A DNA stretch of 64,000 bases, taken from a phage. A model generated the notes under the pieces. That model ran no database searches. It was given only the letters and a program-made list of their open reading frames with translations, and was not told the DNA's origin. A program made the translations under genes and the position numbers. Position 1 is the stretch's first letter; every line of letters begins with the position of its first letter. The stretch is taken from the NCBI GenBank assembly GCA_016390365.1, contig GCA_016390365.1_3043.1; one strand, given 5' to 3'. Positions 5,777 through 55,533 of this stretch are shown one piece after another.

Positions 5777-6252
5777 TTGTAAAATATATCAAGGGCGATA
5801 TTGTCGCCCTATTTCTTCAAGGTAATATTATTGCGCACGGGTGCAATTGTTTTCATACTATGGGTTCAGGTGTAGCGGGTCAATTAGCCAGAGCCTATCC
5901 CAAAATTTTAGAAATAGATAAAACCACTACTGAGTACGGTTCTCGCGATAAATTAGGCGATATGTCTATTGTTTTTAAACATAAACCTAATGGTTTTGGC
6001 ATATGTTATAACTTGTATACGCAATACGAACCAGGTCCTAATCTTGATTATGGTGCTTTAGTAAACTGCATGATAGAATTAAATCTACAGGCAGAAACCC
6101 TTTTGTTTAAACCAGTAATTTACATTCCACGCATAGGTTGTGGTATTGCTGGCGGCGATTGGGATAAGGTTTCTAAATTAATCGACATGTTTACTCCTGA
6201 TATTGATTTAATAGTGGTGGATTATGAAAGTACATTACCCACATCCGTTTGA
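5773..6252 (+). CDS. macro-domain protein (TARG1/Poa1p-like ADP-ribose processing fold)
   Basis: motif HGCNCFHTMGSGVAGQL resembles the HCISxDCxMGAGIA signature of TARG1-type macro domains. Confidence 0.6.
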   Translation: MIVKYIKGDIVALFLQGNIIAHGCNCFHTMGSGVAGQLARAYPKILEIDKTTTEYGSRDKLGDMSIVFKHKPNGFGICYNLYTQYEPGPNLDYGALVNCMIELNLQAETLLFKPVIYIPRIGCGIAGGDWDKVSKLIDMFTPDIDLIVVDYESTLPTSV

Positions 6253-6436
6253 TCCTAAAAACAAAGTGGAAATTATTCGTCAATGGGAACGCATTTGCCG
6301 TACTAAATGTCCAATTAATAGTCCACATGATGTAGATAAAGACTACATTGGAACATTCGTTGAATATACCTTTATTGATAAGAAAGGTCGTAAACAACAT
6401 GTAGAAGAATATTGCTTAAAGGTTACATGGTTATGA
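6224..6436 (+). CDS. hypothetical protein
   Basis: 70-codon ORF; start uncertain (overlap with upstream gene). Confidence 0.4.
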   Translation: MKVHYPHPFDPKNKVEIIRQWERICRTKCPINSPHDVDKDYIGTFVEYTFIDKKGRKQHVEEYCLKVTWL

Positions 6437-6639
6437 GCCAAACTAGTATTCTTAAAAATGCCCACTGTGAAAAGTGTAAGTGGCCTGTTGTTTTTGCTTT
6501 ATGTAATGATGAAATGGCTTGTGATTTCGATTATTGGTGCTATTGTTCTAATAAAGGATGCATCAATCATAAAGGTGAAGGATTTTATTCAGGATTTTAT
6601 CCTTATCCTGATTTCGTTAAAGAAGGTAAACCGAAATGA
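6412..6639 (+). CDS. hypothetical Cys-rich small protein
   Basis: CEKCKW...CNDEMACDFDYWCYCSNKGC, likely metal-binding. Confidence 0.4.
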   Translation: MLKGYMVMSQTSILKNAHCEKCKWPVVFALCNDEMACDFDYWCYCSNKGCINHKGEGFYSGFYPYPDFVKEGKPK

Positions 6640-6809
6640 ATAGTTTTGAGTTACAATATGAAGTGTTACGTGAGCTTGATAATTTAATTGAACTCGCTGT
6701 CAATAAAGGTTTTGCCATTGGAATCGGTCAAAAAGATACTGGTCATTTAACTATGGAAATATTTAAGCAAAAGCGAATTATTTTAAAACTCCTGGAAATT
6801 AATATATGA
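6636..6809 (+). CDS. hypothetical small protein
   Basis: 57-aa ORF MNSFELQYEV..., not in ORF track; ATGA coupling to next gene. Confidence 0.35.
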   Translation: MNSFELQYEVLRELDNLIELAVNKGFAIGIGQKDTGHLTMEIFKQKRIILKLLEINI

Positions 6810-6991
6810 GTCTGAGTAAAGAACAAAAAGATAAATTGTTTGAGCTTATCCATGAACTTCTAGATGAGCATACAGAAGCAAACACCTTTTATGATGAATA
6901 CGGCCCGCTATCTCCCGATCAGCAAGAAGAATTTGCTGATCGGTTTGATAAGAAAGAAAACGAATTAATAGCTTATGTGAATATGCTTTAA
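6806..6991 (+). CDS. hypothetical acidic small protein
   Basis: 61-codon ORF immediately upstream of tk. Confidence 0.4.
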   Translation: MSLSKEQKDKLFELIHELLDEHTEANTFYDEYGPLSPDQQEEFADRFDKKENELIAYVNML

Positions 6992-7000
6992 GAAGGTGAT

Positions 7001-7582
7001 ATGGCGAGTTTAATTTTTACTTACGCAGCAATGAATGCTGGAAAATCTGCTTCTCTTTTGACTGCTGCACATAATTATAAAGAACGCGGAATGGGTGTAT
7101 TAGTTCTTAAGCCTGCTATTGATACTCGTGATTCTGTCTGTGAAGTCGTTTCTCGCATTGGAATTAAGCAGGAAGCGAATATTATTACGGATGATATGGA
7201 TATTTTTGAGTTCTATAAATGGGCTGAAGCACAAAAAGATATTCATTGTGTATTTGTAGATGAAGCTCAGTTTTTAAAAACTGAACAGGTGCATCAATTA
7301 AGTCGAATTGTTGATACATATAATGTTCCTGTTATGGCTTATGGGCTAAGGACTGATTTCGCTGGAAAATTATTTGAAGGTTCTAAAGAACTTTTGGCGA
7401 TTGCAGATAAACTTATTGAACTAAAGGCAGTTTGTCATTGTGGTAAAAAGGCTATTATGACAGCTCGATTAATGGAAGATGGAACACCGGTTAAAGAAGG
7501 TAATCAAATCTGTATTGGTGATGAAATTTATGTTTCTTTGTGTAGAAAACATTGGAATGAATTAACTAAAAAGCTCGGTTAG
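7001..7582 (+). CDS. tk: thymidine kinase
   Basis: 193 aa; P-loop AAMNAGKSASLL; zinc ribbon CHCGKK...C...C; matches recalled T4 Tk. Confidence 0.95.
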   Translation: MASLIFTYAAMNAGKSASLLTAAHNYKERGMGVLVLKPAIDTRDSVCEVVSRIGIKQEANIITDDMDIFEFYKWAEAQKDIHCVFVDEAQFLKTEQVHQLSRIVDTYNVPVMAYGLRTDFAGKLFEGSKELLAIADKLIELKAVCHCGKKAIMTARLMEDGTPVKEGNQICIGDEIYVSLCRKHWNELTKKLG

Positions 7583-7591
7583 TGCAAAAGT

Positions 7592-7599
7592 TATAAATA
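7592..7599 (+). promoter_or_regulatory. late-promoter box TATAAATA
   Basis: exact TATAAATA about 25 nt upstream of ATG 7625. Confidence 0.4.
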
Positions 7600-7624
7600 G
7601 GTTTATCTAACTAAAGGGGTATAT

Positions 7625-7837
7625 ATGCTACAATTAACTGAAAAGCAACTTCGCAATCTTACTGTTCTTCAATTAGATGAAATTCGTAGGGAAGTTGGAA
7701 ATATCATTTCAGCTTTGCGTCGGGAAGTATCACTCAACCAATCTCCGGCAGACTATACTAGATTGCGAAATTTTGAAAAATACCTTGATAAAGTTAAGGC
7801 CGTGCATCGGCATAAAGTAAATACAGGACAAAAATGA
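7625..7837 (+). CDS. hypothetical protein (rI.1 position)
   Basis: 70-codon ORF upstream of rI. Confidence 0.5.
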
Positions 7838-7849
7838 TAGGAGGCCTTT

Positions 7850-8143
7850 ATGGCCTTAAAAGCAACGGCACTATTTGCCATGCTAGGATTAGCGTTTGCT
7901 TTATCTCCACCAATTGAAGCGAATGTCGATCCTCATTTTGATAAATTTATGGAATCTGGTATTAGACACGTTTATATGCTTTTTGAAAATAAAAGCGTAG
8001 AATCATCTGAACAGTTCTATAGTTTTATGCGAACGACTTATAAAAATGACCCGTGCTCTTCCGATTTTGAATGTATAGAGCGAGGCGCGGAGATGGCACA
8101 ATCATACGCTAGAATTATGAACATTAAATTGGAGACTGAATGA
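7850..8143 (+). CDS. rI: lysis inhibition regulator RI (antiholin)
   Basis: 97 aa MALKATALFAMLGLAFALSPPIEANVDPHFDKF, matches recalled T4 RI. Confidence 0.9.
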   Translation: MALKATALFAMLGLAFALSPPIEANVDPHFDKFMESGIRHVYMLFENKSVESSEQFYSFMRTTYKNDPCSSDFECIERGAEMAQSYARIMNIKLETE

Positions 8144-10998: not shown

Positions 10999-11260
10999 TT
11001 TATGGACTCTTATTCCATCAGCATTTATACTTGCCATTTTGCTTATTTTACTTATTATTGGTTCATTTGTTATTCCTGCACAACTGCATGAAAAATATAA
11101 AGATTATAAATGGAAAAAGGATTATGCTTTACATGTAGAAAATATTGATAGGGCGTATAAAGGTTTACCTCCTATTCAACCCAAGAAATCTATTATCGTC
11201 GAATTTTTAAAAGCGCGTAAAGCTAAAGTATGTCCTGTTATTGAATATAAGGCTGAATGA
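10961..11260 (+). CDS. hypothetical membrane protein (C-terminal part, possible frameshifted gene)
   Basis: no ATG (track start is GTG); strongly hydrophobic LIPSAFILAILLILLIIGSFVIP. Confidence 0.4.
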   Translation: MQKSYRNGLFFGSLWTLIPSAFILAILLILLIIGSFVIPAQLHEKYKDYKWKKDYALHVENIDRAYKGLPPIQPKKSIIVEFLKARKAKVCPVIEYKAE

Positions 11261-12270
11261 TGAAAACAGTAATGAAAAGCTATTTTGGTAGTCATCTTTA
11301 TGGAACTTCTACCCCAGAATCTGATGTAGATTTTAAAGAAATCTTTGTTCCTCCTGCTCGCGATATTCTTATCGGAAATGTCAAAGAGCACATGAGTAAA
11401 AACACTAACAACACATCATCTAAAAACACTAAAGATGATATTGACCATGAACTATACAGTCTTAAGTATTTCTTTAAATTAGCGGCAGATGGTGAAACTG
11501 TAGCGTTGGATATGCTTCACACTCCACCTGAACTAGTGGTTAAATCTGATTTGCCTGATGTGTGGAAGTTTATTCAAGACAACCGTTCTCGTTTTTATAC
11601 GACTAACATGAAATCATATTTAGGATATGTCCGCAAGCAAGCTTCTAAATACGGTGTCAAGGGTTCTCGTTTGGCTGCATTACGTGATGTATTGAAAGTA
11701 GTTAATCAAATCCCTGAGCAATGGGTTGATTACCAAGAAGATGGTTCTATTAAGCAGCGTCGTACTAAAGTTGAAGATATTAAGCATCGTCTTCCAGAAA
11801 ACGAATTCTGTGAATGGGTGTTCCATAATCATGAGAAAACAGGCCCACAAACGTTCTACACTGTGTTGGGTCGTAAATATCAGACAACTCTTTCTCTTAT
11901 TGAGCTTAAGCAGTCACTGAACAAATTAGATGCTGAATACGGTGAACGTGCTCGTAAGGCCGAAGCCAACGAAGGCATTGACTGGAAAGCTCTGAGCCAT
12001 GCTTGTCGTGGTGGACTTCAACTATTGGAAATTTACAAAACTGGTGACTTGGTTTATCCACTCCAAGATGCTCCATTTATTCTCGACGTGAAGTTGGGTA
12101 AGCATCCATTTAAAACAGTTCAAGAGTTTTTGGAAGATGTGGTCGATCAAGTAGAAGCAGCATCTACTGAAGCTTCTAAGAACGGTATGCAGCAAAAAGT
12201 AGACATGGGTTTCTGGGATGACTTCCTTGAGAAGGTTTATCTTGAAAACCACCGAAGTTATTATAAATGA
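11257..12270 (+). CDS. predicted nucleotidyltransferase (Pol-beta-like NTase fold)
   Basis: signature GS-x10-DVD in YFGSHLYGTSTPESDVDF. Confidence 0.6.
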   Translation: MMKTVMKSYFGSHLYGTSTPESDVDFKEIFVPPARDILIGNVKEHMSKNTNNTSSKNTKDDIDHELYSLKYFFKLAADGETVALDMLHTPPELVVKSDLPDVWKFIQDNRSRFYTTNMKSYLGYVRKQASKYGVKGSRLAALRDVLKVVNQIPEQWVDYQEDGSIKQRRTKVEDIKHRLPENEFCEWVFHNHEKTGPQTFYTVLGRKYQTTLSLIELKQSLNKLDAEYGERARKAEANEGIDWKALSHACRGGLQLLEIYKTGDLVYPLQDAPFILDVKLGKHPFKTVQEFLEDVVDQVEAASTEASKNGMQQKVDMGFWDDFLEKVYLENHRSYYK

Positions 12271-12272
12271 TA

Positions 12273-12298
12273 GGGAGCCTTCGGGCTCCCTTTTTTTT
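12273..12298 (+). terminator. rho-independent terminator, UUCG tetraloop
   Basis: gggagcc-ttcg-ggctccc followed by T8. Confidence 0.8.
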
Positions 12299-12319
12299 AT
12301 TTCAAAAATTTTTTCACAA

Positions 12320-12387
12320 AATTGTTTACAAGCATAAAGCTTTATGGTACTATACAACTATCAACTGATACGGATTTGGAGAATAAA
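12320..12387 (+). promoter_or_regulatory. early promoter plus conserved leader (PeSL-like cassette)
   Basis: gtttac 12324-12329; TGGTACTATACAACTATCAACT core; leader GATTTGGAGAATAAAATG shared with 38697..38745. Confidence 0.55.
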
Positions 12388-13356
12388 ATGAAAACTGTAA
12401 CTATCAATAAGGGTATTTACTTCGGTAAAGAAATCTCTGGAACTTTTGAGCTCTTAGGCGAATGGTTCCCAGATAATGCTCCAGTAGATGCACAAGGAGA
12501 TGGTAAAGTTTTTGTTGAAATTGACGGTAAACGTCGCGGTGTTTGGGTTTACAAATCAGACATTTCATATGATGGTGTAAAAGTTGAAGAAGTTAAAGAA
12601 TCGTATGAAGATATGAAAACCCGCATTAATAAAAGATTTAATGTTATGGGAATGATGACGAATGGTATTATTAACGGAAACATTCGTTCATTAATTATCT
12701 CTGGTGCGGCAGGCATTGGTAAAACGTATTCTTTAGATAAAGCTTTAAATAAAGCAAATGATATTGGATACATTGAATATAAAAGCATTAATGGTAAAAT
12801 CTCTGGTATTGGTCTTTATGAACAGCTTTGGAATAATCGTGAAGAGAATTCTGTCCTTTTGATTGATGATGTGGATGTTTTCTCTGATATGGACATTCTT
12901 AATCTTCTGAAAGCTGCTCTGGACACCGGAGAGACCCGTAAAGTCTGCTGGAGCACTGCGTCTTCTTACTTAGAAGAAAAAGGCATTGAGCGTGAGTTTG
13001 AATTTAAAGGAACGATTGTTTTTATCACAAACGTTGACATTGACCGCGAATTAGACCGTGGTACTAAACTTGCTCCACATTTACAAGCATTAGTGTCCCG
13101 CTCAGTTTATTTGGATTTGGGTGTTCACACTAATGAAGAAATTATGGTCAGGGTTGAAGATGTTATTCTTTCAACTGACATGATGCAAAAGCGCGGTCTT
13201 TCTGATGAAGAAACTTATAAAGCATTATCATGGATGAAAGTTAATGTTAATCGTTTACGCAATGTTTCACTGCGTACTGCTCTTTATCTTGCTGACTTTA
13301 TTATGACCGACAAAAACGGTTGGGAAGAAATTGCTGAGGTTACTCTTCTGAAATAA
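12388..13356 (+). CDS. AAA+/P-loop ATPase
   Basis: Walker A ISGAAGIGKT, Walker B VLLIDDVD, sensor-like FITN; start ATG 12388. Confidence 0.6.
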   Translation: MKTVTINKGIYFGKEISGTFELLGEWFPDNAPVDAQGDGKVFVEIDGKRRGVWVYKSDISYDGVKVEEVKESYEDMKTRINKRFNVMGMMTNGIINGNIRSLIISGAAGIGKTYSLDKALNKANDIGYIEYKSINGKISGIGLYEQLWNNREENSVLLIDDVDVFSDMDILNLLKAALDTGETRKVCWSTASSYLEEKGIEREFEFKGTIVFITNVDIDRELDRGTKLAPHLQALVSRSVYLDLGVHTNEEIMVRVEDVILSTDMMQKRGLSDEETYKALSWMKVNVNRLRNVSLRTALYLADFIMTDKNGWEEIAEVTLLK

Positions 13357-13454
13357 TTCATAAGAGGACTTCTATGACAAAAAGGCAGTTCAGAAATAGA
13401 TTATATGGACTGCCATTAAAAAGATGACTAGAATTAAACTGGTGAATGGAGGTA

Positions 13455-13760
13455 ATGATGTTATACTCAAAGGCTCGTGAAATTTACGAAACTAAAATTA
13501 AAGAAGCAGTATTTAAGTTCGCAACGACAATGCGATGGACAAATGACTGGGAGTATTCAAAAAATCATAAGAAGCCCATGGTGACAAGAAAGGCTCATAT
13601 GTTAGTGTTAATAGACCGTGAGCAGATTAAAGCCCGAGAAGCCCTCCAGAATCATAAAAAGGCTGCCTTTGAATGGTTTATGGATAACACTGCTCCTGAG
13701 ACTAAGAAAGCGGTAAGCGCATGGTTCAGTGGAAAAAATTGTGAAAGAAGTTTCTTTTAG
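13455..13760 (+). CDS. hypothetical protein
   Basis: start chosen at ATG 13455 after SD ggagg. Confidence 0.45.
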   Translation: MMLYSKAREIYETKIKEAVFKFATTMRWTNDWEYSKNHKKPMVTRKAHMLVLIDREQIKAREALQNHKKAAFEWFMDNTAPETKKAVSAWFSGKNCERSFF

Positions 13761-13805
13761 TGGTTTACAAGACTGTTCCTCTGTGGTACTATACAACTAT
13801 CAACT
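13760..13805 (+). promoter_or_regulatory. early promoter plus conserved core (PeSL-like cassette)
   Basis: gtttac 13764-13769; TGGTACTATACAACTATCAACT core 13784-13805. Confidence 0.5.
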
Positions 13806-13820
13806 ACGGAGGAACACAAA

Positions 13821-14348
13821 ATGAACGCTAAAGATATTTTCAACCTGGTAAATTACAACGATGGTAAATTTAAATCTGAAGCACAAAGCAAGTTCTTTAA
13901 TGACATCTCAATCGGAGGTGAAATCACGGTTGATGGAGGACAAATTTACAAATCTCGTTGGAATTGGATCGTTATTATCGATGAGATTGGTATTGTAGAA
14001 ATTTACAAGAATACGAATAAAAATCGTACATTACACTGGTCTCGTGATACTAACGAACAGTACAAAAAGGATAAAGCATCTAAATTATCTCGTGTAACTC
14101 AAGAAGATATTGAGTTCATCAAGAAAGATATTTTGATGTATGATAACTTAATTGCTGAAGAGCAAGCTGTTATTGATAAATTTGACGAGATTAAAGCTTC
14201 TCGTGAAATTCCTGATTTTATGAAAGAATCAGTAAATGAACGATACACTCTCATTTCAGAGCGTATTGAAACTTACAAAAAGCAAAGAGCTGAACGCCAG
14301 AATACTCTTCGGAAGTTTGAAGAACGGTTAAAGACGGTACTCGCATAA
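13821..14348 (+). CDS. hypothetical protein
   Basis: 175-codon ORF after SD ggagg. Confidence 0.5.
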   Translation: MNAKDIFNLVNYNDGKFKSEAQSKFFNDISIGGEITVDGGQIYKSRWNWIVIIDEIGIVEIYKNTNKNRTLHWSRDTNEQYKKDKASKLSRVTQEDIEFIKKDILMYDNLIAEEQAVIDKFDEIKASREIPDFMKESVNERYTLISERIETYKKQRAERQNTLRKFEERLKTVLA

Positions 14349-14403
14349 CCGCTTTATACCAAGGATGGTATAATGGTTCTAAGCCCTTTTAATTGAGATT
14401 ATT

Positions 14404-14811
14404 ATGAAACAGTTGATAATTAAAAGATTGAATTTATTGATATGTTGTTTATGTATAGTAATTGCATATGGTTATTACGCAATTAATGATTATATGCATT
14501 ATAAAGATTATGATGTTACTGTAGTTAATACCTTTACAGGAACTCAAGGAAAGGGGTCTAGTTTATCGTTTATTGCCGTATATGAACTAAATGACGGTTA
14601 TAGATTTAGCGAATATATTTCACCGGAGATGTATTCTTCAATAGAAAAAGGTGATAATATTACTGTAAGTTTACGTCCTTTCGACGTAAAACAGACATTG
14701 TTTGATAATATTGTTTGGTTCTTTGGAATGGTATTAGTTCAATCTGTGTGTGGTGCTTATATAGTCTGTTCCATCTTATTCTGTATATTTAGTAAAATTG
14801 AAATTGAGTGA
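14404..14811 (+). CDS. hypothetical membrane protein
   Basis: N-terminal and C-terminal hydrophobic segments. Confidence 0.45.
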   Translation: MKQLIIKRLNLLICCLCIVIAYGYYAINDYMHYKDYDVTVVNTFTGTQGKGSSLSFIAVYELNDGYRFSEYISPEMYSSIEKGDNITVSLRPFDVKQTLFDNIVWFFGMVLVQSVCGAYIVCSILFCIFSKIEIE

Positions 14812-14818
14812 GGAAAAT

Positions 14819-15706
14819 ATGTCAGTAGTAATTAATAATGTCAATGCAGTAATTAAATCTTTAGTTAATAAAAAATTGAATGAATGGACTGTACTTCGTC
14901 GTGGAGAGCCAGATAAATTTTTTCATAGATTTAACCCAACTTTGGATTTGAATGTTATTGACAGAGATGTTCATGCTGAAATATTAGATAAGTTTAAAGT
15001 TGATATTGGGTTTGGATTAGATAAACATTTACAACGAACAAACGGGTCTGGAATGGGTTTATCTAATCGCATCATGAAAGCCCTTAATAAAATTGGAGCG
15101 TTGTCTCGTATTAATGCGAGTGAAATCCTTCGCAATTATAATAAAGGATATGACCTTTATGGTCGACTAATGCCGAAATTATCATTCGATCAAATGATTG
15201 CGGATTTGTGGGAAAATCAACGACGATTATTAGCATTAGGCGCTCGATTAGCTAAAGGTCTAGATAAACAAATGATTTTTAAGACCAATAATACAGAAGA
15301 CCTTAAATGCTTTAAATTTAGTATTCGTGGCGATGATTATTATATCAGAGCTCACTCTACAGATTATGTTAATATGGGGCATCATCTCTGTTTAGCTTTT
15401 GAAGTTTTAAAAGAAGCCGGAACATTAGAATATTCATCTGGTGCAAAATGCCCTATTGGTTCAAGTTGTATTTTAATTTATCGCCCGGATGAATCCAGTT
15501 CAACTAAATTGCCTACAAAACCTGTACCAGTTCGTAGTAATGAAAAACATTCTGAGCAAATTGATTATTTTAATAAGCAAATTGAAGAGCTGAATATTTC
15601 TATTCAACAATATGATGATGAAATTTTCAGACTATCTGGACTGAGTAGTAAAGCTAAATCTGAGCGTGAAAAGTTAATTAAAATTATCGATTTACTTAAA
15701 TCTTAA
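14819..15706 (+). CDS. hypothetical protein with C-terminal coiled coil
   Basis: start ATG 14819 after SD gaggaaa; C-terminal heptad-like region. Confidence 0.5.
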   Translation: MSVVINNVNAVIKSLVNKKLNEWTVLRRGEPDKFFHRFNPTLDLNVIDRDVHAEILDKFKVDIGFGLDKHLQRTNGSGMGLSNRIMKALNKIGALSRINASEILRNYNKGYDLYGRLMPKLSFDQMIADLWENQRRLLALGARLAKGLDKQMIFKTNNTEDLKCFKFSIRGDDYYIRAHSTDYVNMGHHLCLAFEVLKEAGTLEYSSGAKCPIGSSCILIYRPDESSSTKLPTKPVPVRSNEKHSEQIDYFNKQIEELNISIQQYDDEIFRLSGLSSKAKSEREKLIKIIDLLKS

Positions 15707-15714
15707 GGAACACC

Positions 15715-16737
15715 ATGAAAACTCGTTCTCAAATTGAAGATATGGTTCGTAATGCCAGCTATACTCGTGATGCTATGACATTTTTGTGCGAAAATAATTT
15801 AGACCTTGGTAAAGTTAATTGTTCCATTCACGCCTTTAAACATCTGAACAGCAGTGAATGGGTGCGTAATTTTAATGAAGCTGGGTATATTACTCAAATG
15901 ACTGCTCGTGAACAGCTCACCGATTTCTGTAAAACTATTGATTATAAAAATCCTCTATTTGTTCAAGGTGTTGGTCAGAGTAAGGTCGATTTATCATCTG
16001 GATTTTTTAATCCAAATCATTATCGTCTTGAATGGAGATTTATTGCTCTATTCCGTAAACAATTAAAGCAAATTTTGTCGACGGCTAGTCGATTAAAAGG
16101 CTCTGATATTAACTTAAAGAATCTGAAATTTGATGGTTATACTCTTCAGATGGAAGTAAGACCGTTAAAAGAAAATAATAGAACTGCACGAATTAGCTTT
16201 AAGCCTAATACTAAAAATTCTCTTTCAATTTGTGAATGCCTTAAATCACAGTTGACAGAAGCATTTAAGTATATGGATGTAGTTGCCGTGGTTCAGTCTA
16301 AGATTTTACCTCATTTTGAGCGAAATTGGGAACATACAACAACGTATGAACTTGATATGATCGTTTCATTTAAATACGATTTTTTGAGAAAGGACGAAGT
16401 CCCGCAAGAGAAAAAGCAGGAAGTGCAAGATATCTTAAATTTATCCAATTACTCATCAAATGATCCTAAATTTTGGATGTATAGTTCAGGTAATAAAGAT
16501 ACATGGAAATTCAATAAAGTGAATTTTCTTCCTATTGAAAATCCGAGTCTTAAACCTGTTGAAAAATGGCACGCGGATGCGATTGAGAAGTCCCTTAAGG
16601 CAGTAGATGATGAACTCGTTAAAGCGACCAATGAAGTGTTAGAAGCTGAAAAGATGCTAGAAAAAGCACAAGAAAAAGTCAAAAATCTCACGAAGCAACG
16701 TTCTAAACTGAACAATGCATTAAATGCACTGAACTAG
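15715..16737 (+). CDS. hypothetical protein, member of tandem paralog family with C-terminal coiled coil
   Basis: MKTR N-terminus; internal motif RLEWRFIALFRKQLKQILSTASRL shared with 16795..17796. Confidence 0.55.
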   Translation: MKTRSQIEDMVRNASYTRDAMTFLCENNLDLGKVNCSIHAFKHLNSSEWVRNFNEAGYITQMTAREQLTDFCKTIDYKNPLFVQGVGQSKVDLSSGFFNPNHYRLEWRFIALFRKQLKQILSTASRLKGSDINLKNLKFDGYTLQMEVRPLKENNRTARISFKPNTKNSLSICECLKSQLTEAFKYMDVVAVVQSKILPHFERNWEHTTTYELDMIVSFKYDFLRKDEVPQEKKQEVQDILNLSNYSSNDPKFWMYSSGNKDTWKFNKVNFLPIENPSLKPVEKWHADAIEKSLKAVDDELVKATNEVLEAEKMLEKAQEKVKNLTKQRSKLNNALNALN

Positions 16738-16768
16738 TTTACTTTACCACAAGGATGTGGTATAATGT
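16735..16768 (+). promoter_or_regulatory. early promoter (30 nt identical to the copy at 61416)
   Basis: gtttac 16737-16742, 17-bp spacer, tgtggtataat. Confidence 0.6.
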
Positions 16769-16794
16769 TCTTACTTTCTACTGAGGAGATTATT

Positions 16795-17796
16795 ATGACT
16801 CGTAACGAATATATCAAATCATTCAATAGCGTTATTGATGATAAAGCTATACCGATGTTTGGTCAAAATATCGTTCTTTCTATTATCAATCAATGGCTCA
16901 ATAGTGTTGATGCAAGTATTGTTTCTTCTACTAAATTTATTCATGAAATTCGTAAAATTTCTAGCCGTGTAGATAAAGATGTTATCAAGAAAACCTTTAA
17001 AGAGTCTCGTCTTCTTTCATATTTGGTTAATCGGGATATTCTTGGTAATTTTGGGAAAGAAATTAAACGAACTAAAGATGTAGTAGGATATAATTGGTTC
17101 GGTGATGTTAATTCTTATCATCTCAATAATAAAGAAGACCCTGAGAATATTTTTACTCGTCGTTGGATTAGTAATTTCAGACTTTTCAAGAAGCAAATTC
17201 TAAAATCAGCTTCTAAATTATGTTATGGCGATTATCGTCAAATTCATCCTTTGGCTTCTGATATGATTATCATAAAAGAATATGAACTTGATAAAAATAA
17301 AGTAGCTATTTTTGTGAATTATGGATTTTTTACACCAGAAACTAACCAAAAGAACATTAATAAATTTTTCTCAATTGCTAGCACTATAACTCGTCAATTA
17401 GAGACCGCATTACTTTGTATGGAAACAGTAGAAAATATTCATACATATCCTTTTAAGAATATATGCGGTTGGGAAGGATATAAAATTGTAGTTAGTCTTC
17501 GTGAAGTGAAATGTACTTATTCACCTACTAGTAAAGAAATTTACCAACAAAAATGTGATGAAATTGTGAATACTCCTAAAGAAGAAACTACCCTTGAGGA
17601 ACTAATGGAATGTCTTGATGATTCACCTGAACCGGTAGAAATTCGTCCAGAAGTTATTGCACTAGAAAAAGCTTATAAAGAAGTTCTAGAAATTTCTAAT
17701 AAAGCGCAGAAAGAATATGAGCAGGCTAAAAGGATTTGGGAAGAATCTGTTAATCGCCTGGATCGTCTTGAACAAGCTTTACAGTTAATTAAGTAA
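16795..17796 (+). CDS. hypothetical protein, member of tandem paralog family with C-terminal coiled coil
   Basis: start ATG 16795 after SD gaggag (track ATG 16765 lies inside the promoter -10); motif FTRRWISNFRLFKKQILKSASKL. Confidence 0.55.
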   Translation: MTRNEYIKSFNSVIDDKAIPMFGQNIVLSIINQWLNSVDASIVSSTKFIHEIRKISSRVDKDVIKKTFKESRLLSYLVNRDILGNFGKEIKRTKDVVGYNWFGDVNSYHLNNKEDPENIFTRRWISNFRLFKKQILKSASKLCYGDYRQIHPLASDMIIIKEYELDKNKVAIFVNYGFFTPETNQKNINKFFSIASTITRQLETALLCMETVENIHTYPFKNICGWEGYKIVVSLREVKCTYSPTSKEIYQQKCDEIVNTPKEETTLEELMECLDDSPEPVEIRPEVIALEKAYKEVLEISNKAQKEYEQAKRIWEESVNRLDRLEQALQLIK

Positions 17797-17848
17797 TTTA
17801 AAGCCAAGGATGGCTCGGAGTATAAATCATTAACCAAGTGAGAAGAAC

Positions 17849-18778
17849 ATGAAAACTCGTAAACATTATATTGATTATTTTGACAGTCTTATTACTAAAC
17901 ATCGTAATTATCAGATAGGGCACAGAGCAGTAATCAATAATATTCTTCGTGATTTCCTTCAATATGTTGGCCAGGAAAATCATATCTGTAAAGATACTCA
18001 AAACGCTTATTCTCATTCGTTAGGCAATTTGCTTGAATGGTTTAAACGTTCTCGTATGTTATCTTCTACTGTAGCTCGCGATAACATTAAAAACTTTATG
18101 AAGCCGAGCTTCATTAAATCTGAGACATCTATAACCGATTTGGTTGAATTTACTATTGTTAACGATGTTAAAAAGACTCATTTGGCTGATTGGTTATCTA
18201 CCATTCCCGAAACTAAATTTGCTGATAAATTCGCTTGTCAATTCAATGACCAAGTGAATATGCTTTTTAAGCATGCTCGTAAACTATTTACCGCGGGCGA
18301 TGACCGTACAAATACAGTTCATGTTAAGGATTGGGTTATTGCTGATGAAGTAACACACAAGCCAGGTGGTTCATCAGTATTAATTAATATCCAGGTTCCT
18401 TATTATTACTCACGTAATCTCGGCACCATGACAGCTAGAGAAATTAATAAGCACAACAAAATTATTCGTTCGTTGTCTTATAAACTCTGCACGATGGTGG
18501 AGATGATGGACGTAGTGGAAATGTATGACGAAACCGAAGATAATGGTTCAATGCTGTACAGTTCACGCATTCTAATTAAACTGAAGAACCCTAATACATA
18601 TAAGCAAGTTGTAAAAGAACCTAAAGCAGAAAAGGCTGATAATCTGAGTGAAGAACGCGAATATCTCAATGCTCGTTTGATTGAAGTTGAAGCCCAAATT
18701 GCAGAACACACCAAATTGTTAAAAGCTCTTAATGCAAAAGCAAATGGTTTACGTAATGCTATTGAGGTATTGAAATGA
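17849..18778 (+). CDS. hypothetical protein, member of tandem paralog family with C-terminal coiled coil
   Basis: MKTRKHYIDYF N-terminus; C-terminal coiled coil EEREYLNARLIEVEAQIAEHTKLLKAL. Confidence 0.55.
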   Translation: MKTRKHYIDYFDSLITKHRNYQIGHRAVINNILRDFLQYVGQENHICKDTQNAYSHSLGNLLEWFKRSRMLSSTVARDNIKNFMKPSFIKSETSITDLVEFTIVNDVKKTHLADWLSTIPETKFADKFACQFNDQVNMLFKHARKLFTAGDDRTNTVHVKDWVIADEVTHKPGGSSVLINIQVPYYYSRNLGTMTAREINKHNKIIRSLSYKLCTMVEMMDVVEMYDETEDNGSMLYSSRILIKLKNPNTYKQVVKEPKAEKADNLSEEREYLNARLIEVEAQIAEHTKLLKALNAKANGLRNAIEVLK

Positions 18779-19089
18779 AAAAGCGTCTATTAGAAGACAT
18801 TGCAGCTTCAAGTAATTCCAGTTTAATTAAAATTATTATGGCCGGTGAAGAAGACGATTTGGAAATGCGTGGAAAGATTCATGGTTGTGATGATTATAGC
18901 AGCCCTATTAATTGGGATTCTGTAATGGTCATGGTTGAACGCCGCGAACGTGCTTCTAAAAACGTTCCTAATTGCCCTGAATGTGGAACTGAACAGGTGC
19001 AATTGGTCCATTGGCAGACTAGTAATCTTCGTTATAAATGTCGCCATTGTAAACACCGATTTGACCGAGAAGAAAATGACAAAGCGTAA
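18775..19089 (+). CDS. hypothetical zinc-ribbon protein
   Basis: CPECG...CRHCKH C-terminal CxxC pair. Confidence 0.5.
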
Positions 19090-19318
19090 AGAATATATGG
19101 AGGCTGCTGAAAAGGCAGTCCGTGAATTAGCAATAGCTTATTATAATGAACACGGTAAATTTCCTGATAGATACAGCGTGCTTAAATCTGCTTTAACTCG
19201 TTCATATAAAAATATGCTATCAGAAGTAAGTGATATTATATACAAACATAAAGAACAAACAGGCCAAAGTCTTGATTACGACGAGACTTTTAAACAAGTA
19301 TTAGGAATTAAGGAATAA
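19076..19318 (+). CDS. hypothetical protein
   Basis: start ATG 19076 (MTKRKEY), overlaps upstream stop. Confidence 0.45.
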
Positions 19319-19319
19319 T

Positions 19320-19583
19320 ATGTTTAAAGTATATGGTTATGATAGCAACATCCACAAATGCGTGTATTGCGATAATGCAAAACGTCTTTTGACCGTGAAG
19401 AAACAGCCGTTTGAATTTATCAACATTATGCCGGAAAAAGGTGTTTTTGATGATGAGAAAATCGCTGAGCTTCTGACTAAACTAGGTCGTGATACTCAAA
19501 TCGGCTTAACAGTGCCTCAGGTATTTGCTCCTGATGGAAGTCATATTGGTGGATTTGACCAATTGCGGGAATACTTTAAATGA
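19320..19583 (+). CDS. nrdC: thioredoxin/glutaredoxin NrdC
   Basis: 87 aa MFKVYGYDSNIHKCVYCDNAKRLL with CVYC active site, matches recalled T4 NrdC. Confidence 0.95.
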   Translation: MFKVYGYDSNIHKCVYCDNAKRLLTVKKQPFEFINIMPEKGVFDDEKIAELLTKLGRDTQIGLTVPQVFAPDGSHIGGFDQLREYFK

Positions 19584-19795
19584 TGCTCGAAGGAACTGAT
19601 TATATCCATGATTACCGCGGAAGCGCGGTATATGTAGGTGATGAAGTTGCAGTTTACTATGGGTATGGAACTTTAATGACAGCCAAGGTTATTCAAATTA
19701 AAAATAACCGTGCTAAACTCGAAGTTTATTATTCTAATGGCGAAAAGTCTATTTCTAAGTGGAAATACGGCGATTGCATGGTCAAACTGGGGTAA
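19580..19795 (+). CDS. hypothetical protein
   Basis: 71-codon ORF, ATGA coupling. Confidence 0.45.
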   Translation: MMLEGTDYIHDYRGSAVYVGDEVAVYYGYGTLMTAKVIQIKNNRAKLEVYYSNGEKSISKWKYGDCMVKLG

Positions 19796-19797
19796 AT

Positions 19798-19968
19798 ATG
19801 ATTTACGATATTAGTGTATCAAGAACTCCATCAATGGTTACTATTCCAGCTGAAGAACTAGATCGTCTTCAGAAAATTGAAGAGCTTCTTTGGGAAATTG
19901 AATCTGATTTGCCATCAGGACTAGAATCCTGGATTGATTATGAAGAACTTAATAAGCTTCGGGGTTAA
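19798..19968 (+). CDS. hypothetical small protein
   Basis: start ATG 19798 after SD ggggtaaat. Confidence 0.4.
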   Translation: MIYDISVSRTPSMVTIPAEELDRLQKIEELLWEIESDLPSGLESWIDYEELNKLRG

Positions 19969-20072
19969 ACCCTGGTGGGCGGCTAGATGGGAAACTGTAG
20001 AGCCAGAGCCGGAAGAACCGGTTTACACTGATGAAGAAACAGTATATAATGAACCAACGATAAATGACTTAA

Positions 20073-20576
20073 TTGATATGGAGATGGGACATGATTACAG
20101 TAGATAAGTGGTTTAGAATTAATCGTGTTGATACAGGGCTATGTAATTACTGGCCGGAACTTAGTGCAGGTACTGTCTTTAAAGTTCGTGAACTTACAAA
20201 AGAATGTGAAGATGATATAGAGCCTGATACTGGAATTATTGAAATTGAACTTTCCGACGGAAAGATTATTAACATCTATGATAAGCCAATTACGTATTGG
20301 TGCTTGTGGAATACTGAATCCGTTGAAAATGGCGAAATTGAAGAAGTTGTAGAGAGAACTAGCCAAGATGTTCAGAAGCCTAAAGCCGCTTTTCAAGGTG
20401 AACGTATTTCATATGCATTAGCTAAAGTGGCATTGAAAAAAGATATTGATGATTATGAAGGTAACCTGATGCAAGCTGCGGCAGAATATATTGAATGGCT
20501 TGAAACACAAAATTCTTTTTCTGACCAAAAGATTCGGCAATATAAGCGATTGAATCAAATGTTTTACAATACTTGA
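20073..20576 (+). CDS. hypothetical protein at the pin position (possible protease inhibitor Pin)
   Basis: 167 aa; synteny nrdC-x-x-pin-x-49 as recalled for T4; sequence identity to Pin not verifiable. Confidence 0.5.
   Translation: MIWRWDMITVDKWFRINRVDTGLCNYWPELSAGTVFKVRELTKECEDDIEPDTGIIEIELSDGKIINIYDKPITYWCLWNTESVENGEIEEVVERTSQDVQKPKAAFQGERISYALAKVALKKDIDDYEGNLMQAAAEYIEWLETQNSFSDQKIRQYKRLNQMFYNT
20529..20576 (+). repeat. direct repeat copy 1 (3' coding module ...IRQYKRLNQMFYNT)
   Basis: about 80 percent identical to 20742..20789; flanked by aaaattctttttctgac copies at 20509 and 20584. Confidence 0.6.
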
Positions 20577-20612
20577 AAAAACTCAAAATTCTTTTTCTGA
20601 CAAGGCATTTTA

Positions 20613-20789
20613 ATGAAAACCGAATTGGTTTATACTGAAAAGTTAAATGGCGGTAAGGTTTGGAAACTTTTTATTAAAGGACATTCTACGGACCCTCATA
20701 TGACCACTTGCGTAGGAACCTATTCTCGTCCTACTAAAAAGATGATTCGACAGTATAAACGATTGCATCGAATGTTTTACAATACTTAA
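20613..20789 (+). CDS. hypothetical small protein sharing C-terminal module with upstream gene
   Basis: 58 aa ending MIRQYKRLHRMFYNT; not in ORF track. Confidence 0.35.
   Translation: MKTELVYTEKLNGGKVWKLFIKGHSTDPHMTTCVGTYSRPTKKMIRQYKRLHRMFYNT
20742..20789 (+). repeat. direct repeat copy 2 (3' coding module)
   Basis: matches 20529..20576. Confidence 0.6.
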
Positions 20790-20790
20790 A

Positions 20791-20822
20791 AATAATAAAT
20801 ACCCTTATCTATTTAAGGTAAG
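20791..20822 (+). terminator. putative hairpin terminator
   Basis: accctta...taagggt stem followed by ttttatt. Confidence 0.45.
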
Positions 20823-20831
20823 GGTTTTATT

Positions 20832-21305
20832 ATGTTATTGACTGGCAAATTATATAAAGAAGAAAAACAGAAATTTTATGATGCACAAAACGGTAAATGT
20901 TTAATTTGCCAACGAGAACTAAATCCTGATGTTCAAGCTAATCATCTTGATCATGACCATGAATTAAATGGACCAAAAGCAGGAAAGGTACGTGGATTGC
21001 TTTGTAATCTCTGCAATGCTGCAGAAGGTCAAATGAAGCATAAATTTAATCGTTCTGGATTAAAGGGACAAGGTGTTGATTATCTTGAATGGTTAGAAAA
21101 TTTACTTACTTATTTAAAATCCGATTACACCCAAAATAATATTCACCCTAACTTTGTTGGAGATAAATCAAAGGAATTTTCTCGTTTAGGAAAAGAGGAA
21201 ATGATGGCCGAGATGCTTCAAAGAGGATTTGAATATAATGAATCTGACACCAAAACACAGTTAATAGCTTCATTTAAGAAGCAGCTTAGAAAGAGTTTAA
21301 AATGA
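20832..21305 (+). CDS. 49: endonuclease VII (Holliday junction resolvase)
   Basis: 157 aa MLLTGKLYKEEKQKFYDAQNGKCLICQ, matches recalled T4 gp49. Confidence 0.95.
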   Translation: MLLTGKLYKEEKQKFYDAQNGKCLICQRELNPDVQANHLDHDHELNGPKAGKVRGLLCNLCNAAEGQMKHKFNRSGLKGQGVDYLEWLENLLTYLKSDYTQNNIHPNFVGDKSKEFSRLGKEEMMAEMLQRGFEYNESDTKTQLIASFKKQLRKSLK

Positions 21306-55052: not shown

Positions 55053-55298
55053 GTGGAAATAACTAAAGACCAGTTTTATCTGCTTCAAGATAAAGTGAGC
55101 GAAATTTATGAAATAGCTTATAGTAAAAATCGCAAAAACGTGAAAATTGAATCAGGCAAGTTAATGCTTCAATTGGAAGAAATTGAACGAGATTTGATTG
55201 CGTTAGAATTCTTTTGCGGTGAAGTGAAAACTGTTACAATCAATGATTATATTTTAGGCGAAATTAGCTATCTTTATAAGGCGATTATTAATGATTGA
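55053..55298 (+). CDS. hypothetical protein, paralog of next ORF
   Basis: GTG 55053 after SD gaggaag; motifs EIERDLIALE and VTINDYILGEI parallel the next ORF. Confidence 0.45.
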   Translation: MEITKDQFYLLQDKVSEIYEIAYSKNRKNVKIESGKLMLQLEEIERDLIALEFFCGEVKTVTINDYILGEISYLYKAIIND

Positions 55299-55533
55299 AT
55301 TAAGTTGGTGTCAGTTTAAATCTCTTATGACAAATGTTAAAGCTGTCATTGAGAAAAATTCTGGTCCTGAAAATATTACTATTCGCGAAAAAGCTTTAAA
55401 GATAATATACAGTCTTGAAGAGATGCAAAAAGATATTGAATCTATGGCAAAATTTATTGATGAGCCCATTAATAAAGTTTATATCCAAGATTATACTGTA
55501 GGTCAAATTCGCGATTTAGCGAGGAAAGTTTAA
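55291..55533 (+). CDS. hypothetical protein, paralog of previous ORF
   Basis: motifs EMQKDIESMA and VYIQDYTVGQI. Confidence 0.45.
   Translation: MIELSWCQFKSLMTNVKAVIEKNSGPENITIREKALKIIYSLEEMQKDIESMAKFIDEPINKVYIQDYTVGQIRDLARKV

Follow-up and report, generated by a model that had tools for sequence, protein, structure and literature searches.

T4 is the best-studied lytic phage, yet for most of its non-essential early genes no role is known. Here, we describe a tandem array of four genes (positions 14819-18778) in a 64,000-nt stretch of phage DNA (the window; contig GCA_016390365.1_3043.1 of assembly GCA_016390365.1). These genes are orthologues of the non-essential T4 genes nrdC.6, nrdC.5, nrdC.4 and nrdC.3, and most likely encode early-made anti-defence (host-range) proteins, a reading to which we assign a probability of roughly 0.55. 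The closest described system is T4 nrdC.5 itself. An evolved T4 clone with large deletions lost its ability to plate on Escherichia coli ECOR17, and deletion of dsr1 from ECOR17 restored plating (PMC9391042; Srikant, Guegler and Laub, eLife 2022). Cloned dsr1 protected strain MG1655 from the T4 deletion clone, and plasmid-expressed T4 nrdC.5 restored plating (PMC9391042). The deletions of this viable clone included nrdC.5 and removed no essential gene (PMC9391042). Dsr1 is a SIR2-domain protein thought to deplete nicotinamide adenine dinucleotide (NAD+) (PMC9391042).

A model for NrdC.5 action may be found in DSAD1, an SPbeta-phage inhibitor reported to block DSR2 by direct binding (PMC11087589, PMC10981675). 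DSAD1 is likewise a phage protein that neutralizes a defence-associated sirtuin NADase, but its target is DSR2 rather than DSR1, it acts in another host and belongs to another phage group; the likeness put forward is one of mode of action. The array can also be compared with counter-defence clusters of T-even phages, such as the dmd-tifA-adfA 'anti-TA (toxin-antitoxin) island' and gp49.2, which is encoded ~1 kb from the array in T4 and T6 and inhibits OLD defence (PMC13096335, 2026). These, too, are non-essential genes in variable stretches, each directed against one host defence. They are, however, small and mutually unrelated, whereas the array consists of large (~300 amino acids, aa) paralogues with a common coiled-coil tail. 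With 49.2 (anti-OLD) neighbouring nrdC.5 (anti-Dsr1), this T-even stretch holds several counter-defence genes. The window itself lacks T4 genes 49.3 and 49.2, and has two small unrelated open reading frames (ORFs; 71 and 69 aa) between nrdC and 49.1 (19580-19968).

The window belongs to a T4-like phage of the genus Tequatrovirus. Over the 4.2 kb surrounding the array, its DNA is 96-98% identical to that of several hundred Tequatrovirus genomes, and the gene order of the region is that of the T4 map in reverse, syntenic with T4 from nrdC.7 to nrdC. Upstream of the array lie nrdC.11 to nrdC.7, and downstream nrdC.2, nrdC.1 and the true thioredoxin gene nrdC (19320-19583). An earlier, sequence-only reading of the window had called four consecutive ORFs here and proposed a comparison with the nrdC-tk region of T4. 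That comparison identifies all four (Table 1), and the array begins exactly at the start codon of nrdC.6 and ends at the stop codon of nrdC.3. The start codons of nrdC.6 (14819, preceded by a good ribosome-binding site) and nrdC.4 (16795, an ATG preceded by GAGGAG) agree with the T4 annotation. The phrog_2257 match of nrdC.6 is full-length, corresponding to residues 8-302 of a longer ORF beginning at 14798, and all nrdC.6 homologues found carry a precomputed PF26899 assignment. The nrdC.5 ORF occupies the same genomic position as T4 nrdC.5 and matches DUF7235 (PF23882) over profile positions 1-307 of 307, far above the 30-bit cut-off; the same model gives no match to the nrdC.6, nrdC.4 or nrdC.3 ORFs. 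The orthologues of these three in T4, in the same order, are hypothetical proteins (phrog_2257, phrog_1435; PF26899, PF26897), and databases hold nrdC.6, nrdC.5 and nrdC.4/nrdC.3 as three unrelated families, which we propose to unite in one.

Table 1. Coordinates of the array genes, their C-terminal heptad segments and the best promoter-like site in the window (z, heptad score against composition-matched shuffles; pLDDT, predicted local distance difference test).
Feature	Position	Strand	Evidence
nrdC.6 orthologue, 295 aa	14819..15706	+	97% aa identity to T4 nrdC.6 over residues 1-258; phrog_2257, E 5.5e-153
C-terminal heptad helix of nrdC.6, residues 242-295	15542..15703	+	AlphaFold2 helices 242-271 and 277-294; z = 4.7
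nrdC.5 orthologue, 340 aa, Pfam DUF7235	15715..16737	+	PF23882, 415.1 bits; 90.6% aa identity to T4 nrdC.5
C-terminal heptad helix of nrdC.5, residues 282-340	16558..16734	+	AlphaFold2 continuous helix 282-339, pLDDT 75-89; z = 6.6
Sigma-70-type (T4 early-type) promoter-like site before nrdC.4	16738..16766	+	GTTTAC-N17-(TG)TATAAT; scored as TTTACT-N17-TATAAT with an upstream TG, 10/12 matches; consensus match only
nrdC.4 orthologue, 333 aa	16795..17796	+	97.9% aa identity to T4 nrdC.4; phrog_1435, E 5.2e-168, full length
C-terminal heptad segment of nrdC.4, last 49 residues	17647..17793	+	z = 3.9; 0/2000 shuffles reach the score
nrdC.3 orthologue, divergent allele, 309 aa	17849..18778	+	phrog_1435, E 9.6e-116, full length
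C-terminal heptad segment of nrdC.3, last 49 residues	18629..18775	+	z = 5.1; 0/2000 shuffles reach the score

The last three genes had been proposed to form a diverged paralog family on the basis of a common N-terminal MKTR/MTRN and an internal motif. Pairwise and profile alignments uphold this proposal, and the family probably extends to the first ORF. Pairwise BLASTP among the four proteins is significant for nrdC.4 versus nrdC.3 only (E 1.6e-7, 24% identity over 270 aa; hhalign probability 97.6%), and PHROGs already places both in phrog_1435. Family alignments, for which sequences were taken from T4, Dhakavirus Bp7, Gaprivervirus SP18 and P896, Yersinia phage P8 and Mosigvirus HX01, were compared as profiles. 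Between nrdC.5 and the merged nrdC.4 and nrdC.3 profile, the match (hhalign 90.3%, E 1.5e-6) extends through 253 colinear columns and takes in nearly the whole proteins, and this alignment pairs the internal motifs with each other. Across nrdC.5, nrdC.4 and nrdC.3, the family alignment shows a common N-terminal K-T-R, a conserved '...A.D.L..FGK' helix and a C-terminal 'L..A(L/I)..LK', in addition to the heptad tail that the three have in common. At the DNA level, the interval 13300-19400 contains just short, chance-level repeat pairs and a ATGAAAACTCGT start common to nrdC.5 and nrdC.3. As DNA-level repeats between the copies are gone, the duplications must be old.

The sequence-only reading had tied the first ORF, nrdC.6, to the others by its coiled coil only. 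In our analysis, nrdC.6 very probably belongs to the same family, a conclusion drawn from the order of structural elements in predicted models and from a transitive chain through two phage proteins. The first of these is a 332-aa protein of Enterobacter phage CC31 that matches the nrdC.6 profile (hmmsearch 5e-10; hhalign 93%, E 3e-7, 200 columns) and occupies the exact position of nrdC.3 and nrdC.4 in T4. The second, a 324-aa protein of Klebsiella phage FRZ284, matches the merged nrdC.5/nrdC.4/nrdC.3 profile (96%, E 1.5e-9), and the two proteins align directly with each other from end to end (BLASTP E 1e-7, 23% identity over 312 columns). A direct profile match between nrdC.6 and the merged profile is weaker (74.8%, E 2.6e-5, over 99 columns), and places 'MKALNKIGALSRINASEILRNYNKG' and 'NQRRLLALGARLAKGLDKQ' of nrdC.6 opposite two conserved helices of the other members, the same helices that carry the internal motif.

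AlphaFold2 models of nrdC.6 (pLDDT 76, predicted template-modelling score, pTM, 0.65) and nrdC.5 show the same order of secondary-structure elements. Both begin with N-terminal helices (up to residue 150 in nrdC.6 and 124 in nrdC.5), followed by β strands 1-2 (165-170 and 173-178; 144-150 and 156-162 in nrdC.5), a helix between the strand pairs (186-199; 169-185), β strands 3-4 (204-209 and 217-221; 190-201 and 209-219), a disordered linker (227-241; 223-280) and the C-terminal helix (Table 1). An alternative is that nrdC.6 is unrelated and has only its C-terminal coiled coil in common with a true family of three members. This would explain why nrdC.6 has no similarity to the others in pairwise BLASTP or to the nrdC.5 profile alone, why the C-terminal segments by themselves fail to match between families, and why the top matches of the nrdC.6 and nrdC.5 models in a viral structure search (E <= 1e-3) do not overlap; a heptad tail on a protein of no detectable relationship is also seen two genes upstream, in nrdC.8. 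We consider this alternative unlikely, given three independent links through CC31 and FRZ284 (each with E <= 3e-7 and each across the globular part), the direct profile match on the two motif-bearing helices, the identical element order and the genomic position of the CC31 protein.

All four proteins end in a heptad-like segment, as had been claimed from the sequence. The last 42-56 residues of each can be read in one heptad register without a break (z = 3.5-6.6 relative to 2000 composition-matched shuffles), and for none of the four do more than 0.25% of the shuffles score as high. Judged by a home-made heptad score together with the AlphaFold2 helices of nrdC.5 and nrdC.6, the tails show the uninterrupted periodicity of at least 4-5 heptads within an α-helix that is expected of coiled-coil proteins. 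Models, made as monomers, cover these two proteins, while the nrdC.4 and nrdC.3 tails are known from the heptad score. When 83 non-overlapping + strand ORFs of 80 aa or more are ranked by this score over their C-terminal 35 residues, nrdC.5 comes 1st, nrdC.6 3rd, nrdC.3 4th and nrdC.4 joint 5th. We calculate a chance of ~6.5e-4 for four neighbouring genes all to rank among the top six (80 windows x C(6,4)/C(83,4)). The C-terminal helix is the most conserved part within both the nrdC.6 and the nrdC.5 families, and in nrdC.6 even the surface positions of the helix are more conserved than the remainder of the protein. When the C-terminal segments are compared alone, no match is found across families except a marginal one between nrdC.5 and nrdC.3 (47%), so that homology of the tails cannot be demonstrated from sequence.

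Two further heptad-rich ORFs were seen in the window. The nrdC.8 orthologue (13821-14348, 175 aa) likewise has a heptad helix at its C-terminus (score 9.6; z ~4 versus shuffles). It is nearly invariant in Tequatrovirus (dN/dS, the ratio of non-synonymous to synonymous substitution rates, 0.02), and was rejected as a family member since it has no profile similarity to the family. The second-highest heptad score of the window (11.1) belongs to an 80-aa ORF at 55291-55533.

The family is restricted to Straboviridae. When 5.8 billion proteins were searched by word index, the nrdC.5 and nrdC.6 families returned T-even-type phage proteins only, and an exhaustive profile search with the nrdC.5/nrdC.4/nrdC.3 alignment against 1.84 billion cluster representatives found 22 proteins. 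All named full-length clusters among these are from Tequatro-, Dhaka- and Mosigvirus phages, F48-type Klebsiella phages, or such phage sequences under host names. A viral structure search (E <= 1e-3) likewise gave only uncharacterized Straboviridae proteins, from phages of Erwinia, Klebsiella, Aeromonas and Serratia with the nrdC.5 model, and from phages of Enterobacter, Pectobacterium, Acinetobacter, Citrobacter and Yersinia with the nrdC.6 model. Copy number differs by genus. Karamvirus, Jiaodavirus and Acinetobacter phage AM101 have a single ~330-aa gene with a heptad tail, directly upstream of nrdC.2 or nrdC. Three copies are present in Dhakavirus and Gaprivervirus (nrdC.6, nrdC.5-like and nrdC.4) and in Mosigvirus (nrdC.6-like, nrdC.5-like and nrdC.3-like), and all four in Tequatrovirus. 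No member was detectable by sequence in the corresponding neighbourhood of Krischvirus JSE, Slopekvirus Matisse and Aeromonas phage SW69-9. This pattern suggests that all four genes derive from one Straboviridae-specific gene. Karamvirus, Jiaodavirus and Acinetobacter phages would have kept it as one copy, close upstream of nrdC.2/nrdC, while it would have been duplicated to three copies in Mosig-, Dhaka- and Gaprivervirus and to four in Tequatrovirus.

Rates of change were compared in seven Tequatrovirus sequences, namely the window, T4 and five IMG/VR contigs; an IMG/VR scan with nrdC.4 gave five loci, too few for a population analysis. Outside the array, the proteins of nrdC.10 (full-length matches), nrdC.9, nrdC.8 and nrdC.1 are 98-100% identical to those of the window, and that of nrdC 94-99%. 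Within the array, amino acid identity is 94-99% for nrdC.6, 89-99% for nrdC.5 and 92-98% for nrdC.4, while nrdC.3 falls into two allele classes, at 95-99% and about 60%. The T4 allele is in the latter class, and thus of a different class from the window's: against T4, nrdC.3 has 60% identity and its neighbours 96-99%. The window's nrdC.3 is 95-99% identical to other Tequatrovirus alleles, and about 75% identical to the Mosigvirus copies. Pooled dN/dS is 0.10 for nrdC.6, 0.20 for nrdC.5, 0.18 for nrdC.4 and 0.30 for nrdC.3, compared with 0.02-0.05 for the flanking genes, nrdC.7 and nrdC.2 excepted. The array genes thus show relaxed or diversifying evolution relative to their flanks. The earlier description of the array as fast-diverging holds in this relative sense and for nrdC.3, but less well for a set of genes whose dN/dS stays below 1 and which includes the well-conserved nrdC.6. 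As an observation beside these, nrdC.3 (60% to T4) and nrdC.2 (57-97% among Tequatrovirus) together form a local allele-replacement hot spot (17849-19089) amid genes conserved at 98-100%.

The genes have the marks of accessory genes: one, three or four copies depending on the genus, two nrdC.3 allele classes, a natural variant lacking nrdC.4, and a viable T4 clone lacking nrdC.5. Since one member of the family, nrdC.5, has been found to overcome an anti-phage defence of bacteria, nrdC.6, nrdC.4 and nrdC.3 become good anti-defence candidates. The host-interaction or counter-defence role suggested for the whole array from sequence is partly supported, for nrdC.5 by the published rescue against Dsr1 and for the other genes by the way they evolve. 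On nrdC.6, nrdC.4 and nrdC.3, we found nothing in the searchable literature beyond a genome note. Similarly, on DUF7235 and later Dsr1-inhibitor work, nothing on the family was found beyond PMC9391042.

Several points weigh against the overall explanation of the array as a coiled-coil family of anti-defence proteins. The experimental link to defence covers one of the four genes, and was obtained at the level of phenotype with the T4 allele (PMC9391042), which is 90.6% identical to the window's. Every gene has a dN/dS below 1 in the seven sequences compared, which means that positive selection is not proven, and nrdC.6, at 95-99% identity in most Tequatrovirus records, is unlike an arms-race gene in being conserved within the genus. 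Searches with PADLOC and of the PDB by sequence gave no informative match; the PDB search had no match, and a single weak BrxC coiled-coil match in PADLOC was dismissed. Coiled-coil formation and oligomeric state are predicted from the home-made heptad score and monomer models. The place of nrdC.6 in the family depends on marginal profile scores (family alignments with an effective number of sequences, Neff, of ~2.3) and the transitive chain, not on direct similarity. The likeness of the two models is one of element order, and the nrdC.5 model is poor (mean pLDDT 56).

A different reading accepts one family but confines counter-defence to nrdC.5, the other members serving other early host-takeover or housekeeping roles, for instance by binding host or phage proteins that have no part in immunity. 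The silence of the searchable literature on nrdC.6, nrdC.4 and nrdC.3 fits this reading, as do the conservation and dN/dS (0.10) of nrdC.6 and the fact that paralogues at 15-25% identity frequently differ in function. It is nevertheless rather improbable in our view: the genes are non-essential in T4 (PMC9391042), confined to one phage family and variable in copy number and alleles among close relatives, and the same stretch has another anti-defence gene in T4 and T6, all of them traits typical of accessory host-range genes. Still less probable is that the four proteins, joined by their coiled coils, form a hetero-oligomer that serves one function, instead of acting as independent inhibitors. 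The four genes are adjacent and on the same strand, their tails are of about equal length and end in h-x-x-A/h-h-x-x-L-K, and the conserved surface of the nrdC.6 helix would suit such a complex. Yet plasmid-borne nrdC.5 alone sufficed to restore plating of the deletion phage, related genera get by with one or three copies, a natural variant has nrdC.5 fused to nrdC.3 and nrdC.4 gone, and the tail sequences do not match between families. That the proteins are thioredoxins, the product name given to these ORFs in hundreds of phage records in GenBank, is hardly tenable. None of the four has a thioredoxin or glutaredoxin domain in Pfam at E <= 1, the element order in the nrdC.5 and nrdC.6 models differs from that of the thioredoxin domain, and the real thioredoxin NrdC is encoded downstream. 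The most likely source of the label is the set of gene names nrdC.x, which mark a map position next to nrdC.

Returning to the anti-defence reading, each protein may act as a stoichiometric inhibitor, in which a variable globular part would bind one host immune protein. As suggested by the action of the T4 gene, the target of NrdC.5 would be the Dsr1 SIR2 NADase. In the models of nrdC.5 and nrdC.6, the N-terminal region is helical and is followed by a small β-β-α-β-β module, then by a disordered linker and finally by a C-terminal heptad helix of 45-58 residues, which could oligomerize the inhibitor and thereby raise its avidity for oligomeric targets. A more far-reaching version, which we put forward only tentatively, is that the array forms a specialized inhibitor set, in which the variable head of each paralogue would be directed against a different host immune system (nrdC.5 against Dsr1), the coiled-coil tail would be a common oligomerization scaffold, and new specificities would arise by duplication and allele replacement.

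The array is not a new kind of element, as its genes have long been listed for T4 and are covered by families in Pfam and PHROGs. What is new is modest: four genes can be seen as one family from a single-copy ancestor, two modelled members combine a variable head and linker with a conserved heptad tail, and three uncharacterized genes become counter-defence candidates. Three 'hypothetical proteins', mislabelled as thioredoxins, now appear to be distant paralogues of nrdC.5, the only characterized gene here. If the array is indeed such a specialized inhibitor set, it would be the first family of several anti-defence genes to be described from T-even phages. Its build suggests a design rule, a variable head on a conserved oligomerizing tail, and the two nrdC.3 allele classes and the copy-number differences between genera could be set against host range.

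Expression of the array in the window phage may be early. Two of the genes had been credited with their own early promoter, a claim that is only half upheld: nrdC.4 is preceded by the one strong consensus match, reading GTTTACTTTACCACAAGGATGTGGTATAAT (Table 1), and the site before nrdC.3 (TTTAAA-N18-TATAAA) is weaker. A TATAAT upstream of nrdC.7 has no good -35 element at a suitable distance. The region shows no excess of promoter-like sites, with 45 found and 37 +/- 6 expected. A motif CCAAGGATGG (or CACAAGGATGTGG) was seen directly before the -10-like TATAAT/TATAAA of nrdC.7, nrdC.4 and nrdC.3 (14360-14374, 16751-16766 and 17804-17826). An Rfam search of 11000-21000 gave no match.

A few variants of the array genes were observed in passing. 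The T4 reference nrdC.6 (NC_000866, 11008-11894) is frameshifted after residue 258; its last 37 residues sit in a different frame, and the annotated 275-aa product has no coiled coil. As nrdC.6 of RB55 and of another T4 record reads through in a single frame, this frameshift is either strain-specific or a sequence error. In public collections, one sequence (P0056) is a natural nrdC.5::nrdC.3 fusion with nrdC.4 deleted, its junction lying at a short common FNKVN/FNDQVN motif, and another (P0097), from Shigella phage Sf25, is an nrdC.6 with an internal duplication. A third (P0096; 173 aa, on an 803-bp contig) joins an unrelated N-terminus to a near-identical copy of the nrdC.5 coiled coil, and may be an assembly chimera, as its N-terminal part has no match in the phage collection. 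Near nrdC.11, Aeromonas phage SW69-9 carries NAD+ salvage genes for a nicotinamide phosphoribosyltransferase and a NadM/Nudix adenylyltransferase (7013-8071 and 12769-14223), and Klebsiella phage Matisse one for a NadM/Nudix-type cytidyltransferase (6099-7160). The corresponding T-even stretch has the anti-Dsr1 gene, and both the salvage genes and the anti-Dsr1 gene would counter NAD+-depleting defences.

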